A stretch of DNA of 64,000 nucleotides from Escherichia phage JS98. Below the pieces are notes generated by a model, which did no database searches, had not been told where the DNA came from, and worked only from the letters and a program-made list of their open reading frames with translations. Shown here one piece after another: positions 15,544 to 43,093 of this stretch. Positions within the stretch are counted from its first letter, which is position 1. Each line of letters starts with the position of its first letter. The position numbers and the translations under genes were made by a program. The DNA lies in sequence record NC_010105.1. One strand, written 5' to 3'.

Positions 15544-16568
15544 ATTTTAGAATATTTTGAAAGCCTCATTTTTGCCATTAACCCTTGGGCTATATTAGCT
15601 TTCATATATGCCAATACATCATTTATATCAGCTTTATCTTTCATAACCATATCATTTATATCTTTAGAAGGCCATGGAGCCTTGTCCCAGAATAGAACCC
15701 TTTCGCCGGCATCAACTAATCGTTGCATACGCTTAATTGTGTCAGGATGACGGGGTTCATTGTCCATTACCCAAGCACGAGTTTCTTTACATGGAACCAT
15801 AGCCAAGTCCAACGACCCGCCAGTAATTGCTATTGCATTAGGTACGAATAATGAATCAATAGGACCTTCCATTACCCACACCAATTGACGTTCGTCAACT
15901 GTATCCATTCCATATATTTTTGTAGCTTGGTCATGAGCTTTTATTGTAATATATTTTTGTGGAGCATCTTTACGTAAGGCTCGGCCCTGAAAACTTTCAA
16001 TTTGTTTATTCTTATTGAAAATTGGAATAACCAAACGTGGTTCAGGCATTTCTTTGGAATAGGTCCCTGGATTAACAGAGTTCACCAATGCAGGCCATTC
16101 TTTAGTAAACCATAACCGATTCCATTTATTTTCAGGAATGCACCGCAGAGTTACATACTTAATAATAGGATGGTCTTTCGGCATTCTATCTAATCGTTCA
16201 CAGAAATTAAGCTTTTCAATGACAGGCATCTTAGCTTTAATTTTTTCAGATATCTCCACCTTAGGTGCAGCTTGTCTCCCGAACGATTGCTCTTTATGTT
16301 TCTCAAGAATATATTCGCGATATAAATCAGGCTCATATTCGTATAGGTACTTCTTAATTCCTGCTGAATAATCACAGTTAAAACAATGTAGCATTACAGA
16401 GCCGTCATTGGCTGGATAGGCCCAGAATCGAGCTTTGTTTTCATCTTTTTGGGAGTCACCACATACACGGCAACGACAATTTAATTTAAAATCACTACCA
16501 GTTACTTGTCTGAATTTAGGTTGGTAATTCAAGGCACGTACAGCAAATTCTCTATCGACATATGACAT
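15540..16568 (-). CDS. 61: DNA primase gp61
   Basis: 342 aa; zinc-binding CRCRVCGD...HCFNC; length and position as T4 gp61. Confidence 0.9.
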   Translation of the reverse strand: MSYVDREFAVRALNYQPKFRQVTGSDFKLNCRCRVCGDSQKDENKARFWAYPANDGSVMLHCFNCDYSAGIKKYLYEYEPDLYREYILEKHKEQSFGRQAAPKVEISEKIKAKMPVIEKLNFCERLDRMPKDHPIIKYVTLRCIPENKWNRLWFTKEWPALVNSVNPGTYSKEMPEPRLVIPIFNKNKQIESFQGRALRKDAPQKYITIKAHDQATKIYGMDTVDERQLVWVMEGPIDSLFVPNAIAITGGSLDLAMVPCKETRAWVMDNEPRHPDTIKRMQRLVDAGERVLFWDKAPWPSKDINDMVMKDKADINDVLAYMKANIAQGLMAKMRLSKYSKI

Positions 16569-16606
16569 TATTTTTCCTTGGGCTCTAAATTAATAGAGCC
16601 ATTATA

Positions 16607-16768
16607 TCATTCGTTTTCGGATTTTTCTTTACGCTTTTTAGATGGGATTTGTTCAGGCCCTTTGTTGACGACTGCGCCTGAGGTAGTTCCGGAGGCAATA
16701 TTAGATGGATTTCCACCAGCATCGCCTGCGACCATATCTTCGTTCATAACTTCTTTAAAAGATTTCAT
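16607..16768 (-). CDS. possible small Gly/Ser-rich, Lys-tailed protein
   Basis: 53-aa ORF not in track; SD AGGAG; immediately downstream of a TATAAATA element. Confidence 0.3.
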   Translation of the reverse strand: MKSFKEVMNEDMVAGDAGGNPSNIASGTTSGAVVNKGPEQIPSKKRKEKSENE

Positions 16769-16781
16769 AGGCTCCTGGCCT

Positions 16782-16789
16782 TATTTATA
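16782..16789 (-). promoter_or_regulatory. late promoter TATAAATA
   Basis: plus tatttata at 16782-16789. Confidence 0.35.
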
Positions 16790-16976
16790 TTACGAAAATA
16801 GCTTTATCACCATTTGCATCAGTGACTTCATACGTATCTTCGTGGTAAAGTGGAATAATCCAAGTTACGCCATCGCCTGCAATAATATGGATAGCTTCTT
16901 GGTCTTTTGATACGATTTCATATTCTTCGAACAGTTCGAATACAGAAATCTTAGAGCCCGTACACATTGCAGTCAT
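16785..16976 (-). CDS. hypothetical protein
   Basis: 63-aa ORF; start uncertain. Confidence 0.3.
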   Translation of the reverse strand: MTAMCTGSKISVFELFEEYEIVSKDQEAIHIIAGDGVTWIIPLYHEDTYEVTDANGDKAIFVI

Positions 16977-17172
16977 ATTGTTCCCTTCTTTTAATCAGTT
17001 GACGGTGTGCCTTTTTAAGCTTACGAATCTGTCTTTTAGTAGGTCGTGCAACGTAAGCCTGAGTAGTTACTCGTCCAAAAACGCCGTACTTGGGCGAAGG
17101 AGAATCAATAAAGACTTCCCACTGACAAGAGTAACTATACACTGCTTTAGAGAATTGAGTTAAGACAAACAT
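16951..17172 (-). CDS. small basic protein, PTKRQIR-motif family
   Basis: 73 aa; C-terminal ARPTKRQIRKLKKAHRQLIKRRE. Confidence 0.45.
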   Translation of the reverse strand: MFVLTQFSKAVYSYSCQWEVFIDSPSPKYGVFGRVTTQAYVARPTKRQIRKLKKAHRQLIKRREQYDCNVYGL

Positions 17173-17173
17173 A

Positions 17174-17608
17174 TCAACCTCGGTTCATAAAGGCATTAAA
17201 AATCTGGTCGTCAATTGAATAAACCGGAGCTTCCAGAATTTTCAACAGACTGTTTTTGATATACTTGCTAGGGATATCCATATTAACGCGGTCGTTCAAT
17301 TCGTTGCCCGGGTGGATATCTTTAAATTCGAATCCTTCAAATTCAACCTTGTCCGGAAACCCGTCAGCGAAAAAATAAACCAATTGGTGCATTGCATTGA
17401 GCGAAAATAATTTAGACTTAACAGCAATAAGTTCTTGCCAATGGTTTAATTCTCTGTTAAGAAGTTTATGAGCGAATACAATTCTATCGTCGCTATCAAC
17501 AATAAAATAACCTAGGTACTGATGGTCGTCGCTCCAAAACATCCTGTATGCTTGTGCGTTTGGATTTTTACAACGAAGCTTTTTAATAACCAAAGTTCTG
17601 TTAATCAT
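17174..17608 (-). CDS. hypothetical protein
   Basis: start re-placed to ATG 17608 (MINRTLV), 1 nt after upstream stop. Confidence 0.4.
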   Translation of the reverse strand: MINRTLVIKKLRCKNPNAQAYRMFWSDDHQYLGYFIVDSDDRIVFAHKLLNRELNHWQELIAVKSKLFSLNAMHQLVYFFADGFPDKVEFEGFEFKDIHPGNELNDRVNMDIPSKYIKNSLLKILEAPVYSIDDQIFNAFMNRG

Positions 17609-17609
17609 T

Positions 17610-17903
17610 TTACTCACCTGTAACCTCTTTAACAATGTTTTTGTTATCGAAATTAGCGTCACAATACAAAACATAGTTGTACTGCATAACACCGGTTGAA
17701 GCTAATTGGTCGGACACTTCTTTAACCATGTCAGGACGGTCACGTTTAGTGATGTTCATGATATCGGCATAAATCTGATGTTCAACTGACTCTTGGTCTG
17801 CAGTCATAGACCATTCACAAAGGTCTTTATCCAATCCGGCAGTTACCGGAGCCGTGCCACATGATGCTACTGTAAGGATTGCTGCGATTAATAACTTTTT
17901 CAT
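17610..17903 (-). CDS. putative lipoprotein
   Basis: 97 aa; MKKLLIAAILTVASC signal peptide with lipobox; SD GAGGAG; early promoter upstream. Confidence 0.5.
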   Translation of the reverse strand: MKKLLIAAILTVASCGTAPVTAGLDKDLCEWSMTADQESVEHQIYADIMNITKRDRPDMVKEVSDQLASTGVMQYNYVLYCDANFDNKNIVKEVTGE

Positions 17904-17931
17904 TTTTAACTCCTCATTAGTGGATAGGTCT

Positions 17932-17961
17932 ATAGTATCACTACCATAGACCGATGTAAAC
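17932..17961 (-). promoter_or_regulatory. early promoter
   Basis: GTTTAC-N18-TACTAT. Confidence 0.55.
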
Positions 17962-17962
17962 T

Positions 17963-18202
17963 TTATTTTAACGAATCTTCCAAATAAATTTTACGGAATT
18001 TACGTTTGGTCTGACGAATCTGACGCTTAGTAGGCTTCACAGGAAATTCGAAGAACTCTACATATTCCTGTTCATAATCGTTATGACCTACTGAAAGAAC
18101 TAGTTCCCAGCTGCTTACGGTGCGTTGGATAAACATATTATGCTTACCGAAAGATTTATTCCAAAAAGAACTAGGAGTTGGTTTCATTAGTACGATATTC
18201 AT
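17963..18202 (-). CDS. small basic protein, PTKRQIR-motif family
   Basis: 79 aa; C-terminal KPTKRQIRQTKRKFRK. Confidence 0.45.
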   Translation of the reverse strand: MNIVLMKPTPSSFWNKSFGKHNMFIQRTVSSWELVLSVGHNDYEQEYVEFFEFPVKPTKRQIRQTKRKFRKIYLEDSLK

Positions 18203-18343
18203 TTATTCCTCGTCTTCATGTTTATGAGCAATTTCTTCGAATTCGCTATCACAGTCTAAACAGGTTGCGTTGTCCCAAGCATCAAATACTGCTTGGTCTT
18301 CACAGACCGAACAACCACATACTACACATTCAAACTCTTCCAT
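18203..18343 (-). CDS. small Cys-rich zinc-ribbon-like protein
   Basis: 46-aa ORF not in track; MEEFECVVCGCSVCEDQ...CLDCD; leader identical to dmd leader. Confidence 0.4.
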   Translation of the reverse strand: MEEFECVVCGCSVCEDQAVFDAWDNATCLDCDSEFEEIAHKHEDEE

Positions 18344-18547
18344 TTAGATTTCCTCAATGCGGGCATCATATTCAAAAACTTTATTATCATTAACAAAGGC
18401 TTTCACCAGTGCATTATTCACTTCTGCATACTGCACCGTAACCCATTCAATCATTTTTTGGTCACTAACATCCAGAGCAGTTTCTTTGGTAAACATATTA
18501 CCATTTTCAAACCAACCAATAAACACTACGTTCTCTAATTTATACAT
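18344..18547 (-). CDS. dmd: Dmd-like antitoxin (inhibitor of RnlA/LsoA-type RNase toxins)
   Basis: 67 aa; VVFIGWFENGNMFTKE...QYAEVNNALVKAF matches T4 Dmd as recalled; between 61 and 41. Confidence 0.75.
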   Translation of the reverse strand: MYKLENVVFIGWFENGNMFTKETALDVSDQKMIEWVTVQYAEVNNALVKAFVNDNKVFEYDARIEEI

Positions 18548-18865
18548 TTAGATTTCCTCACAGAAGGCCCATTCAGCGTGATAAACCGTAGCGCCTTTAG
18601 TATCATTTAAACAAACCACATCTACCGGAGCAATTACACGATAAAGACGAGGTTCTCCTCCCACTGAACGAGCAGCTCGTCCAGCATAAATCTTAGCCAA
18701 ACCAATATCTTCAGTAAAGAACACACGATTCAGGTTTTTCTTACGACCAGTTTCAGACAGAACTCCTGTTTCCTCAGGAGGACAAAGCATATTACCAATA
18801 TTAGCAACACTACAACTTCCATGATAATACACTTTATATTCTGCTTTACAGTCGATGGTTTTCAT
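18548..18865 (-). CDS. hypothetical protein
   Basis: start re-placed to ATG 18865 (MKTIDC); track start 18877 is TTG. Confidence 0.45.
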   Translation of the reverse strand: MKTIDCKAEYKVYYHGSCSVANIGNMLCPPEETGVLSETGRKKNLNRVFFTEDIGLAKIYAGRAARSVGGEPRLYRVIAPVDVVCLNDTKGATVYHAEWAFCEEI

Positions 18866-18889
18866 TTTGTTCTCCAAGTTGATAGGTCT

Positions 18890-18918
18890 ATAGTATCATG
18901 CCTACAGGAGAAGTAAAC
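18890..18918 (-). promoter_or_regulatory. early promoter (GTTTAC-N17-TACTAT)
   Basis: atagta 18890-18895, gtaaac 18913-18918. Confidence 0.6.
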
Positions 18919-18931
18919 CCTTAAAACAAAA

Positions 18932-18949
18932 AAGGAGCCGAAGCTCCTT
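18932..18949 (-). terminator. intrinsic terminator after gene 41
   Basis: aaggagc-cgaa-gctcctt overlapping gp41 stop; minus strand followed by TTTTTTGTTTT. Confidence 0.6.
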
Positions 18950-20387
18950 AAAATTTGATAGATGCTGCTAAATCGTCTAAATCGCTTCTATTAACACGCG
19001 ACTGTCGATTGACCTCTGCTTGGCGGTTCATTTCACCTGTAGCCTCACGAACGGTGTTCACTGGGCCTGGGTTAGAATCGTCTTCAACTTCATACCAACG
19101 CTGGTTTCCTTTCTTAACACCAATCTTAAATTTGTTGTAGTAGCTCTTATCGCCATAACGAGATTTGAGCTGCTTAACCATCTGCATACCCATCTGAGCA
19201 AACTCTTCTGTCTCGACCACACCTAACATGAAGTCTGCAGTATGTGCAATACCAAAGGATTCAGCTATATCAGCCATATCGATTTCGGCGGCAACGTTCG
19301 CACCACGAGTAGTCTGGGCTGCAGTCCACAACAATAATTTCTTCTCTACTGCAAGTCCACGTAGTTCTTCGGCAACCATCTTAATCAATCCATAACTGTT
19401 TTCAGAGAAAACTTTCGTACGGGATGAAGCACAGATAGCCAAGTAGTCGACGATAACGACCTGTGGGACAAAGTTTTGTTTGAGCTTGTATTCGTTTAAT
19501 AATGCACGGAATGTATCGGCATTAGCACCACCAGTAGGGTACTGTTTAATCTTTAAACGACCTAAAGTAGCAGTTGAACGCCACTTATCCATCTTAGCTT
19601 TATATTCAGGCCATGAGACGTGACCATCATCGATATCATCCAATGATACATCCAGAAGGTTAGCATCGATACGCTTAGCACATACTTCCTCTGCCATCTC
19701 CATGGAGATATAAAGAACATCGTAACCGGATTGAAGGTAATCAGCAGCCAATGAACACAGACCCAGAGACTTACCTACGTTTGTTCCTGCCAACAATACG
19801 TTTTCAGTACCGAACTCTGCTCCACCCTTAGTAATCTTATTCAGAATATTAAGACGGAATGGAACCTTACGTGCTTTATCGGAATAACTTTTAAAACGTT
19901 CTTCATAGTCATCCATCCAGTCATGGCCTAATTCAGAATCGAAACAAATCGATAATGCATCGCGCATGATATCCGGAATAGCACCAATACCTGGGAGTTT
20001 TCTATTTTGTTGCTCAACCGGAAGGTCGGCATTAGTTTGAATTTCAATAATTTTTGAAGTGGCATTATACATCGCTGCCTTCTGAACATATTTCTCTGTC
20101 TCTTTAACCAACCATTCTTGGTCTTCAGGGCCAGCGTTCAGTGAACTTAAAAGCTCTTTAGCTCCTTGGTGTTCAACTTCTGAAAGGGTGCTGTTATCTA
20201 ATGCAATACTCAAAGCATTTTTAGAAGGCACCGCATTATATTCATTGACATGTTTTTTGATTTCTTTGAAAAGGGTCTTTGCCGGACCCTGGTCAAAATA
20301 AGAATCATTCATATAAGGCCAGACCTTAGTGAAATAATCACTATTGCCTAGCAGTTGAGCCAAAATAGTTTCTACCACTTCCACCAC
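18948..20387 (-). CDS. 41: replicative DNA helicase gp41 (DnaB-like)
   Basis: 479 aa; near-collinear with T4 gp41 as recalled. Confidence 0.92.
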   Translation of the reverse strand: MVEVVETILAQLLGNSDYFTKVWPYMNDSYFDQGPAKTLFKEIKKHVNEYNAVPSKNALSIALDNSTLSEVEHQGAKELLSSLNAGPEDQEWLVKETEKYVQKAAMYNATSKIIEIQTNADLPVEQQNRKLPGIGAIPDIMRDALSICFDSELGHDWMDDYEERFKSYSDKARKVPFRLNILNKITKGGAEFGTENVLLAGTNVGKSLGLCSLAADYLQSGYDVLYISMEMAEEVCAKRIDANLLDVSLDDIDDGHVSWPEYKAKMDKWRSTATLGRLKIKQYPTGGANADTFRALLNEYKLKQNFVPQVVIVDYLAICASSRTKVFSENSYGLIKMVAEELRGLAVEKKLLLWTAAQTTRGANVAAEIDMADIAESFGIAHTADFMLGVVETEEFAQMGMQMVKQLKSRYGDKSYYNKFKIGVKKGNQRWYEVEDDSNPGPVNTVREATGEMNRQAEVNRQSRVNRSDLDDLAASIKF

Positions 20388-41183: not shown

Positions 41184-41407
41184 TCTTTCACCTTCATCAT
41201 TTTAGAAATAACACTATGAACAGACTGGATTCGTTTTTCGAACTCAGACTCTTCAAGACCCTTTTCAGTACTCAGCGCACCAATCATCACAAACAGCAAT
41301 CCAAATGGGATAACCAGGATTAAAAGGCACACAATAAACAGGACAAATGTAATATTGGCCAGGATATCAGAAGCAGCATTACGAAATTTATTCATACGAT
41401 AGTCCAT
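41180..41407 (-). CDS. hypothetical membrane protein
   Basis: 75 aa with one TM segment. Confidence 0.4.
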   Translation of the reverse strand: MDYRMNKFRNAASDILANITFVLFIVCLLILVIPFGLLFVMIGALSTEKGLEESEFEKRIQSVHSVISKMMKVKE

Positions 41408-41501
41408 GTATTAGTTACAACAAATAACCATTGAGCAGGATACTCAACACCCATGCGCCGGATAATATCATTCATAGATTCGGTTAAGGCGTAAAAATTA
41501 A

Positions 41502-41975
41502 TCATTTAAGCGATTTCCTCAGTTGTTTTTTAAATGAATCAACCATTTGTTTCTTTGTGTCAGATTCATTATAAGTCATTCCATGTGAAAGCATTTCAGC
41601 AATCATTTCTTCCTTACCTAATCTACTGAACTCTTTGGTTTTATCAGGAACGAAATTAGGATGGATATTGTTTTCAGTGTAATCAGATTTCAGATAGACC
41701 AGCAAATTCTCTAACCATTCGAGGTAGTCAACGTTTTGACCTTTAAGACCAGAACGGTTGAACTTATGCTTCATTTGTCCTTCTGCAGCATTGCACAGGT
41801 TACATAGTAAACCACGAACCTTACCAGCTTTTGGCCCGCTCAATTCATGGTCGTGGTCAAGGTGGTTACTTTGAACATCAGGGTTTAATTCACGTTTACA
41901 AATCAAACACTTACCACATTGTGCATCATAAAGTTTTTGTTTTTCTTCTTTGTATAATTTGCCGGTCAACAACAT
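41502..41975 (-). CDS. 49: endonuclease VII (Holliday junction resolvase) gp49
   Basis: 157 aa; MLLTGKLYKEEKQKLYDAQCGKCLICKRELNPDVQSNHLDHDHEL near-identical to T4 gp49 as recalled. Confidence 0.93.
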   Translation of the reverse strand: MLLTGKLYKEEKQKLYDAQCGKCLICKRELNPDVQSNHLDHDHELSGPKAGKVRGLLCNLCNAAEGQMKHKFNRSGLKGQNVDYLEWLENLLVYLKSDYTENNIHPNFVPDKTKEFSRLGKEEMIAEMLSHGMTYNESDTKKQMVDSFKKQLRKSLK

Positions 41976-42010
41976 AATAAACCCTTACCATTATTAGATA
42001 AGGGTATTTA

Positions 42011-42196
42011 TTATTTTTCAAATGTGCTATAGAACGAACGGTGCAACCGTTTAAATTGACGAATCATCTTTTTGGTAGGACGAGTATACAATCCCACACA
42101 GGTGGCCATAAACTGGTCAGTAGGGCTTCCTTTGATAAGAAGTTTCCAGACCTTGTCACCGTTTAACTTTTCGGTATAGACTAATGCAGTTTTCAT
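42011..42196 (-). CDS. small basic protein, PTKRQIR-motif family
   Basis: 61 aa; RPTKKMIRQFKRLHR. Confidence 0.4.
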   Translation of the reverse strand: MKTALVYTEKLNGDKVWKLLIKGSPTDQFMATCVGLYTRPTKKMIRQFKRLHRSFYSTFEK

Positions 42197-42495
42197 GCGA
42201 CCTCAAATTCATTATCATCGTTAGTCCAAAAACACCAGAATGAAGCTTTAGTATCTTCAAACATTTCTTTAGTGTATTCGTATACCTTACCATTGAATTC
42301 GATAGCAGTTACGCCAATGATTTCAGGATTGCCCCATGGAGAAATCTCCACCTTCAAGATTTTAACTTCAGCACCTTCACAGAGCTCGCCTGACTCAAAA
42401 CCGCGATTGCCGTTTAATTCAGGCCAGTCAACATAATGGTCGACATCTTCTTCAGTAATACGAACAGTTTTACCTTCAAATTCAAATAAATTCAT
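42193..42495 (-). CDS. hypothetical protein
   Basis: 100-aa ORF. Confidence 0.4.
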   Translation of the reverse strand: MNLFEFEGKTVRITEEDVDHYVDWPELNGNRGFESGELCEGAEVKILKVEISPWGNPEIIGVTAIEFNGKVYEYTKEMFEDTKASFWCFWTNDDNEFEVA

Positions 42496-42784
42496 CAGAA
42501 GGCCTCATCAGAAAAGCGGAGTTGAGCTTCAAGCCAATGGATATAATCGGCTGCGGCTTTAATTAAATCAGACTCTAGGTCAGGTAAAGAACCCGAATCC
42601 GATAACTCGTAAAGCGAATGTTCAATCAGACGGCCTTTATGACGGCCAATTTCAATTTTGGTACTCATATCCAAACTCCATATCGATTAAATCATTGTTT
42701 GAAGGTTCATTATACTCTATTTCGGAATCGTTGTAAACCGGTTCCTCTGGCTCGGTAGTTTCCCACCGAGCGACATACCATGGC

Positions 42785-43093
42785 TTAATGGTCACGCCAC
42801 CAACTACTTACTTCAAAATCAGGCTCGCCGTCTTCCCAATACCAAGGGCCGATTGGATGCCAATCACCATGCTCATCTTCTTCAAATTCTTCGGATTCGA
42901 GCCCAACGTATTGCCATTGGACTTCATAAGCAATGTCACCGATTACAACGGTGTTCTCGCCATACGGATTAGCCACAACAAAGTCTATACCTTCTGCTTT
43001 AGCCAGCCAAACCATATATTCGTATAGTTTATATTCTAGGTCATCTTCGGTGCCATCACCTAGAAAAATGGTTTGTTCGTTTAATTCAATCAT
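42785..43093 (-). CDS. hypothetical acidic protein
   Basis: 102-aa ORF. Confidence 0.4.
   Translation of the reverse strand: MIELNEQTIFLGDGTEDDLEYKLYEYMVWLAKAEGIDFVVANPYGENTVVIGDIAYEVQWQYVGLESEEFEEDEHGDWHPIGPWYWEDGEPDFEVSSWWRDH

Follow-up and report, generated by a model that had tools for sequence, protein, structure and literature searches.

RESULTS

Three small genes of the TifA family in phage JS98

We examined a stretch of 64,000 nucleotides from Escherichia phage JS98 (sequence record NC_010105.1; hereafter the window), which comprises the leftmost ~64 kb of a T4-like coliphage, a Dhakavirus of the JS98/JS10 type; phage JS10 is collinear with it. A preliminary description, made from the sequence alone, had drawn attention to three small open reading frames (ORFs) that share a basic motif. 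All three are present, on the minus strand, and encode proteins of 73, 79 and 61 aa. We call them A, B and C, and relate them below to T4 gene 61.4, which Srikant, Guegler and Laub renamed tifA, for ToxN inhibitory factor A (eLife 2022, PMC9391042):

16951-17172, minus strand: A, a TifA-family paralogue (73 aa) whose slot is flanked by the 61.2-position ORF and the orf63/61.1 ORFs
17963-18202, minus strand: B, a TifA-family protein (79 aa) in the position of tifA (T4 gene 61.4)
42011-42196, minus strand: C, a minimal TifA-family paralogue (61 aa) immediately upstream of gene 49 (endonuclease VII)

The preliminary description had given the family a span of 16951-18202. A and B do lie there, but so do spackle and the 61.2-position ORF, which are not family members.

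A, B and C are all basic proteins, with isoelectric points of about 10, and each matches the Pfam family DUF7279 (PF23945), whose model has 53 positions and a cut-off of 24.5 bits: A with E=5.8e-20 (71.4 bits), B with E=8.6e-20 (70.8 bits, model positions 2-53 of 53) and C with E=2.1e-16 (60.0 bits, model positions 1-53). The whole model is covered in every case, from position 1 or 2 to position 52 or 53, and the coverage is the same for the TifA proteins of T4 (72.7 bits) and RB69 (63.0 bits). PHROG assignment placed B in phrog_2375 (E=2e-35) and both A (E=1e-25) and C (E=4e-34) in phrog_3272. T4 TifA is 47% identical to B over 73 aa and 37% identical to A over 62 residues, the loop motif FGRV included; the likeness of C to T4 TifA is mostly confined to the helix described below. 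NCBIfam and PADLOC gave no meaningful match, and T4 TifA itself went unrecognised in NCBIfam.

The counterpart of B is annotated as gene 61.4 in IME08 and JS10. B is 100% identical to proteins of JS10 and of MN04, a phage classified in species Dhakavirus JS98; A reaches 100% identity only with a protein of KIT01. In the GenBank record of VR5, both the A-type and the B-type gene carry the label 'similar to phage T4 gp61.4', so the paralogy of A and B was already on record. We conclude that A, B and C are TifA family members by sequence, and B and C also by predicted fold. The family, its Pro-Thr plus basic-helix motif and its RNA-binding role were published between 2022 and 2024; the observation of the motif in JS98 is thus a rediscovery and brings little that is new.

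The shared motif aligns with the mutated residues of TifA

The motif had been given as [RK]PTK[RK]xIRxxKR. B and C fit this pattern as written, A ends in KK rather than KR, and the pattern common to all three is [RK]PTK[RK]xIRxxK[RK]. Nor is it the end of the proteins, as had been stated, for 8-20 residues follow it. Its three copies are:

17002-17046, minus strand: motif in A, residues R43-R57 (R43-PTKRQIRKLKK; RPTKRQIRKLKK)
17990-18037, minus strand: motif in B, residues K56-K71 (K56-PTKRQIRQTKR; KPTKRQIRQTKR)
42038-42082, minus strand: motif in C, residues R39-R53 (R39-PTKKMIRQFKR; RPTKKMIRQFKR)

TifA attaches to the endoribonuclease ToxN and also to RNA, and it inhibits ToxN (Guegler et al., NAR 2024, PMC10853763). 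RNA binding by the Pro-Thr-capped basic helix has been shown for T4 and RB69 TifA only, with dissociation constants of 0.36-2.3 uM, and the substitutions P53A/T54A or K55A/R56A/R59A abolish RNA co-purification, interaction with ToxN and its neutralisation (PMC10853763). The counterparts of P53, T54, K55, R56 and R59 are P44, T45, K46, R47 and R50 in A, P57, T58, K59, R60 and R63 in B, and P40, T41, K42, K43 and R46 in C. Since all of the residues mutated in the TifA experiments are conserved, A, B and C would be expected to bind RNA as well. By this analogy, the earlier suggestion that the basic segment binds nucleic acid is supported: it is the equivalent of the helix that binds RNA in T4 and RB69 TifA (PMC10853763).

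Downstream of the motif, the tail of A (16951-16980; QYDCNVYGL) lies outside the Pfam model and forms a second semi-conserved element without counterpart in B or C. Similar tails are WEGIHCDIIGL (P0017), WEGIHCDVAGL (P0020) and TCDYAEILK (T4 TifA).

A, B and C are genes under purifying selection

Could the motif simply reflect a DNA element that is repeated, and could the ORFs be chance reading frames? The ORFs are indeed short, and they lie in genome regions that vary between related phages, though we found nothing that supports this explanation. The motif, written as a regular expression with the K[RK] end, matched 3 times in the six-frame translation of the window and not once in 200 dinucleotide-preserving shuffles, and its analytic expectation is 6.5e-6. 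Hence, a chance origin of the motif is ruled out. A hidden Markov model (HMM) of the family recovered exactly A, B and C among 1,277 stop-to-stop segments; the next-best segment had E=0.6, and the window holds no further member by this search.

At the DNA level, the longest word common to any two copies is 9 nt, and the codons vary synonymously between copies (Arg AGA/CGT, Lys AAA/AAG, Thr ACT/ACC). Against orthologues, the ratio of nonsynonymous to synonymous divergence (dN/dS) is 0.02-0.20 for all three types, at dS values of up to ~1.5, and the orthologues are kept in dozens to hundreds of phage records. The short shared word, the synonymous codon differences and the dN/dS values rule out a DNA repeat or gene conversion; the preliminary description had itself raised a repeated DNA element as a possible source of the motif, and we reject it. 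We give practically no weight to an explanation of the motif by DNA repeats or chance reading frames, and conclude that A, B and C are real genes under purifying selection on the protein.

Homology extends over the whole domain

The preliminary description took the motif for a shared module carried by diversified effectors with unrelated N-terminal parts of about 40 aa. On visual inspection, conservation is far stronger in the helix than elsewhere, and the scores of only 25-27 bits between the three copies come mostly from the helix, which speaks for one nucleic-acid-binding or targeting tail attached to unrelated parts. With the helix cut off, however, the N-terminal parts alone still match positions 1-35 of DUF7279: A with 26.6 bits (E=5.5e-6), B with 24.8 bits (E=2e-5) and C with 21.6 bits (E=2e-4). 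An HMM built from the N-terminal parts of independent homologues found A (E=2e-8) and B (E=1e-3); this small N-terminal-only model missed C, which the curated Pfam model did detect. At the sequence level, N-terminal homology thus appears clear in A and B but less strong in C.

The predicted folds agree as well. The AlphaFold model of B (predicted local distance difference test score, pLDDT, of 72) has strands at 2-6, 32-40 and 44-53 and a helix at 59-78; that of C (mean pLDDT 82.5) has strands at 2-9, 15-22 and 31-36 and a helix at 42-60. Both are three-stranded beta-sheets followed by a helix that starts right after Pro-Thr, which is the published TifA architecture, and B and C are accordingly predicted to have a TifA-type fold. 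Judged from these alignments, the homology spans the whole ~53-residue domain and not the helix alone. Given whole-domain homology and the same predicted fold in B and C, we conclude that one small, single-domain protein has given rise to A, B and C as diverged paralogues. These results contradict the notion of a tail on unrelated effector parts, which we consider very improbable.

Three old copies per genome

Their mutual scores are low, and each of the three proteins is closer to proteins of other phages than to the other two. Hence, their divergence is old. Orthologues at 80% identity or above occur in ~68 phage records for the A type, ~46 for the B type and ~92 for the C type, and the C-type gene is found in 339 phage records in all. 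The copies of A listed at at least 80% identity are of the Dhakavirus type; the remaining matches are ordinary tifA genes of other T-even phages. No further member was detected in JS10 at 60-171 kb (best E=0.067), which argues that a phage of this type has exactly three members.

RB69 likewise has three: TifA, ORF087c and the mini-protein ORF089c. RB69ORF087c is the orthologue of C, 52% identical to it, and scores 58 bits on DUF7279. RB69ORF089c (54 bits) is a mini-version without counterpart in the window; both of these RB69 proteins are uncharacterised. ORF089c (L006:960-1076) is a truncated member with the sequence ...VRPTKRQLRKAKRSHRNFYREY.

Beyond these phages the family is small. An exhaustive profile search of 1.84 billion representative proteins returned only ~50 clusters at E<=1e-3, most of them of 60-100 aa, and word-indexed protein searches found close relatives only. 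Long profile matches made up of several stretches were rejected as family members, being either junk from tandem repeats or polyproteins of the plant copia type with nothing but KPTKKHLKAIKRVFRYL in common. The occurrence of several copies per genome is not discussed in PMC9391042 or PMC10853763. Literature searches on DUF7279, PF23945, ORF087c and the PHROG identifiers returned nothing relevant, and no work on TifA paralogues from 2024-2026 turned up.

B occupies the tifA position, A and C do not

The gene order around B is gene 41, orf109, dmd, orf46, B and sp (spackle), and in T4 it is gene 41, dmd, 61.4 (tifA) and sp. Since B, like tifA in T4, has its place between dmd and sp, it is the positional counterpart of tifA; A and C occupy other slots. 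Three genes beyond B comes A, flanked by the 61.2-position ORF and the ORFs that precede gene 61, where T4 has no gene. C follows two pin-like ORFs and stands directly upstream of gene 49; in T4, nothing lies between pin and gene 49. This slot was confirmed for the C type in RB69 (ORF087c) and in a Tequatrovirus (~79% identity). The region that holds dmd and tifA was called a possible 'anti-TA (toxin-antitoxin) island' by the authors of the eLife study (PMC9391042).

Each of the three genes has a GAGG-type Shine-Dalgarno site, and its start adjoins or overlaps the upstream gene's stop codon, forming a coupled junction. Together with the promoter-like sites listed below and the low dN/dS, these features favour expression of the three ORFs, the lack of which the preliminary description had also raised. 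tifA is an early gene in T4. The following features accompany the genes; the Shine-Dalgarno, promoter-like and terminator-like sites are consensus matches only:

18344-18547, minus strand: dmd, inhibitor of the RnlA/LsoA toxins (Pfam Dmd, E=2.3e-20), in the same array as B
18890-18918, minus strand: T4-early-type promoter-like site (GTTTAC, 17 nt, TGATACTAT), between the gene 41 terminator and orf109/dmd
17932-17960, minus strand: promoter-like site upstream of sp (TTTACA, 17 nt, TACTAT, with TG)
42709-42737, minus strand: near-consensus promoter-like site (TTTACA, 17 nt, TATAAT; 11/12), upstream of the pin-like ORFs and C
41981-42005, minus strand: terminator-like hairpin that directly follows C's stop codon (9-bp stem, then a T-rich tail)

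The site at 18890-18918 matches the sigma-70 consensus at 8/12 positions, which is below the scan listing, and was recognised by direct reading of the sequence. A single transcript from it could carry orf109, dmd, orf46 and B; the promoter of T4 tifA lies upstream of dmd (PMC9391042). The site at 17932-17960 could drive sp, the 61.2-position ORF and A. Common to these two sites is the string TGATACTATAGACCTATC, preceded by GTTTAC.

Several neighbours of these genes merit description. The ORF orf109 (18548-18877, minus strand), between the gene 41 terminator and dmd, belongs to phrog_2110, and searches of Pfam and of PDB sequences gave no match for it; in some GenBank records it bears the label 'nucleotidyltransferase', and its true start is likely the ATG at 18865, after GGAGA. 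Between dmd and B is inserted orf46 (18203-18343, minus strand), which encodes an acidic, cysteine-rich protein of 46 aa (CVVCGCSVC ... CLDC; phrog_13952); in T4, dmd and tifA are directly adjacent, with no such insert. The 61.2-position ORF (17174-17692, minus strand) belongs to phrog_8539. Its T4 counterpart by position, 61.2, is adfA (anti-DarT), which falls in a different PHROG, and the AdfA Pfam model matches only the last 15 residues of the JS98 protein (E=0.008, below cut-off). From the short sub-threshold match and the different PHROG, this phage may lack a true AdfA at the 61.2 position.

Of the two pin-like ORFs upstream of C, the first (42495-42674, minus strand, 59 aa) matches the C-terminal half of the PinA model (positions 88-136) and the next (42193-42495, minus strand, 100 aa) the N-terminal half (positions 3-74). 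Hence, the order of the PinA halves is swapped when compared with an intact pin gene. The window is also a mosaic when set against sequenced relatives: the region from gene 41 to gene 61 (16500-19000) is closest to MN04 (98.9%), and the gene 49 region (41400-42800) is 98% identical to JS10, with MN04 covering only 78% of it.

DISCUSSION

What do A, B and C do? We put the probability at about 75% that they are anciently diverged TifA-family paralogues that act, likely by tethering to RNA, as inhibitors of specific host defence proteins. An anti-defence role is one that we infer by analogy with TifA, with which all three proteins share DUF7279, the size class and the Pro-Thr-capped basic helix; B shares in addition the genomic position next to dmd, and B and C the predicted sheet-plus-helix fold. 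A and C differ from TifA in that their slots are empty in T4, and C further in being minimal (61 aa), with short loops, and outside the panel of homologues published to date.

The motif of the preliminary description is the start of the helix: Pro-Thr caps it, and on this reading the Lys and Arg residues that follow would form its RNA-binding face. Like the TifA proteins of T4 and RB69, A, B and C would each most likely bind abundant cellular RNA through this helix. The variable surface of beta-sheet and loops would meanwhile hold a specific host defence protein, most plausibly a toxin of the RNase type, on the RNA and so inactivate it. A is an extra copy in phages of the Dhakavirus type and C a minimal subtype. 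In the published view, it is the beta-sheet and loop part of TifA that carries target specificity: TifA proteins are specific for certain ToxN homologues, and clades differ in the loop region but have the helix conserved (PMC10853763). That A, B and C have specific targets is suggested by this specificity of TifA, by the place of B among counter-defence genes and by the retention of three diverged copies.

A and B, or proteins nearly identical to them, have already been called 'tifA' homologues, in the panel of Table S2 of PMC10853763. There, 'tifA vB_EcoM_005' is A except for D67E. 'tifA JS98' has the length and composition of B, with a single E displaced, which we attribute to extraction from the PDF, since similar errors occur in other sequences of Table S2; its identification with B rests on this noisy table text together with the 100% identity of B to the MN04 protein.

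It is from this panel that the strongest evidence comes against our interpretation. Whereas the TifA proteins of T2, T4, T6 and RB69 neutralised E. coli ToxN, 'tifA vB_EcoM_005' and 'tifA JS98' neutralised none of the seven type III toxins tried, which were six ToxN homologues and one TenpN (PMC10853763). Hence, A and B may lack the only function demonstrated for the family. Immunoblots confirmed that two of the panel homologues were produced at a high level (PMC10853763). These two were probably the two FLAG-tagged ones, and strain ML4195 carries FLAG-tagged vB_EcoM_005 TifA (PMC10853763). Two further points count on the same side. The N-terminal part of C is weakly conserved, its 21.6 bits falling just under the Pfam cut-off. 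And structure offered no help: a profile search of PDB sequences found no match for the family, so that no solved structure came to light, and Foldseek searches with the model of C gave no informative fold neighbour, the best hits being at E=0.41 in the PDB (nothing significant) and E=0.012 in BFVD, an uncharacterised small protein of phage S16.

The negative toxin screen is compatible with specific targets, and equally with the main rival explanation, namely that A, B and C are general RNA-binding proteins of early infection (RNA chaperones, protectors of phage mRNA, or modulators of the ribosome or translation) that have no specific host target. The RNA-binding helix is the only feature conserved across the whole family, and TifA binds single-stranded and double-stranded DNA in vitro as well as RNA, shows little sequence preference and co-purifies with 16S rRNA (PMC10853763). 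Together with the failure of near-identical versions of A and B to neutralise any toxin, these properties would suit a general role. However, TifA of T4 and RB69 is specific for certain ToxN homologues, mutations in the toxin allow escape from TifA, and the authors argue against a simple coating of RNA (PMC10853763). Three diverged copies under purifying selection are also more easily explained by different partners than by a redundant activity, and B sits beside dmd, among other counter-defence genes. We therefore regard a purely general RNA-binding role as unlikely, and prefer inhibitors directed at specific defence proteins.

The neighbour of B provides a parallel for such inhibitors. Dmd (T4 gp61.5), like TifA a small early protein of the phage, neutralises an RNase toxin of the host; its sequence (PF17587) is unrelated to the TifA family. 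Dmd inhibits RnlA and LsoA by direct protein-protein binding, with no requirement for RNA.

What the finding adds is the number and age of the copies: three old, diverged genes of this family are kept under purifying selection in a single Dhakavirus genome, and RB69 also has three. Tentatively, and with the odds somewhat against it, A, B and C may be diversified RNA-tethering inhibitors, with one helix and different surfaces, each directed against a different defence nuclease outside the set of toxins tested. A, B and C, the C type above all, are clearly defined candidates for finding new targets of phage counter-defence. If such diversification is real, the C type would define a new anti-defence specificity, and counter-defence proteins of this adaptable kind would form a broader family, with TifA as the first member to be described.

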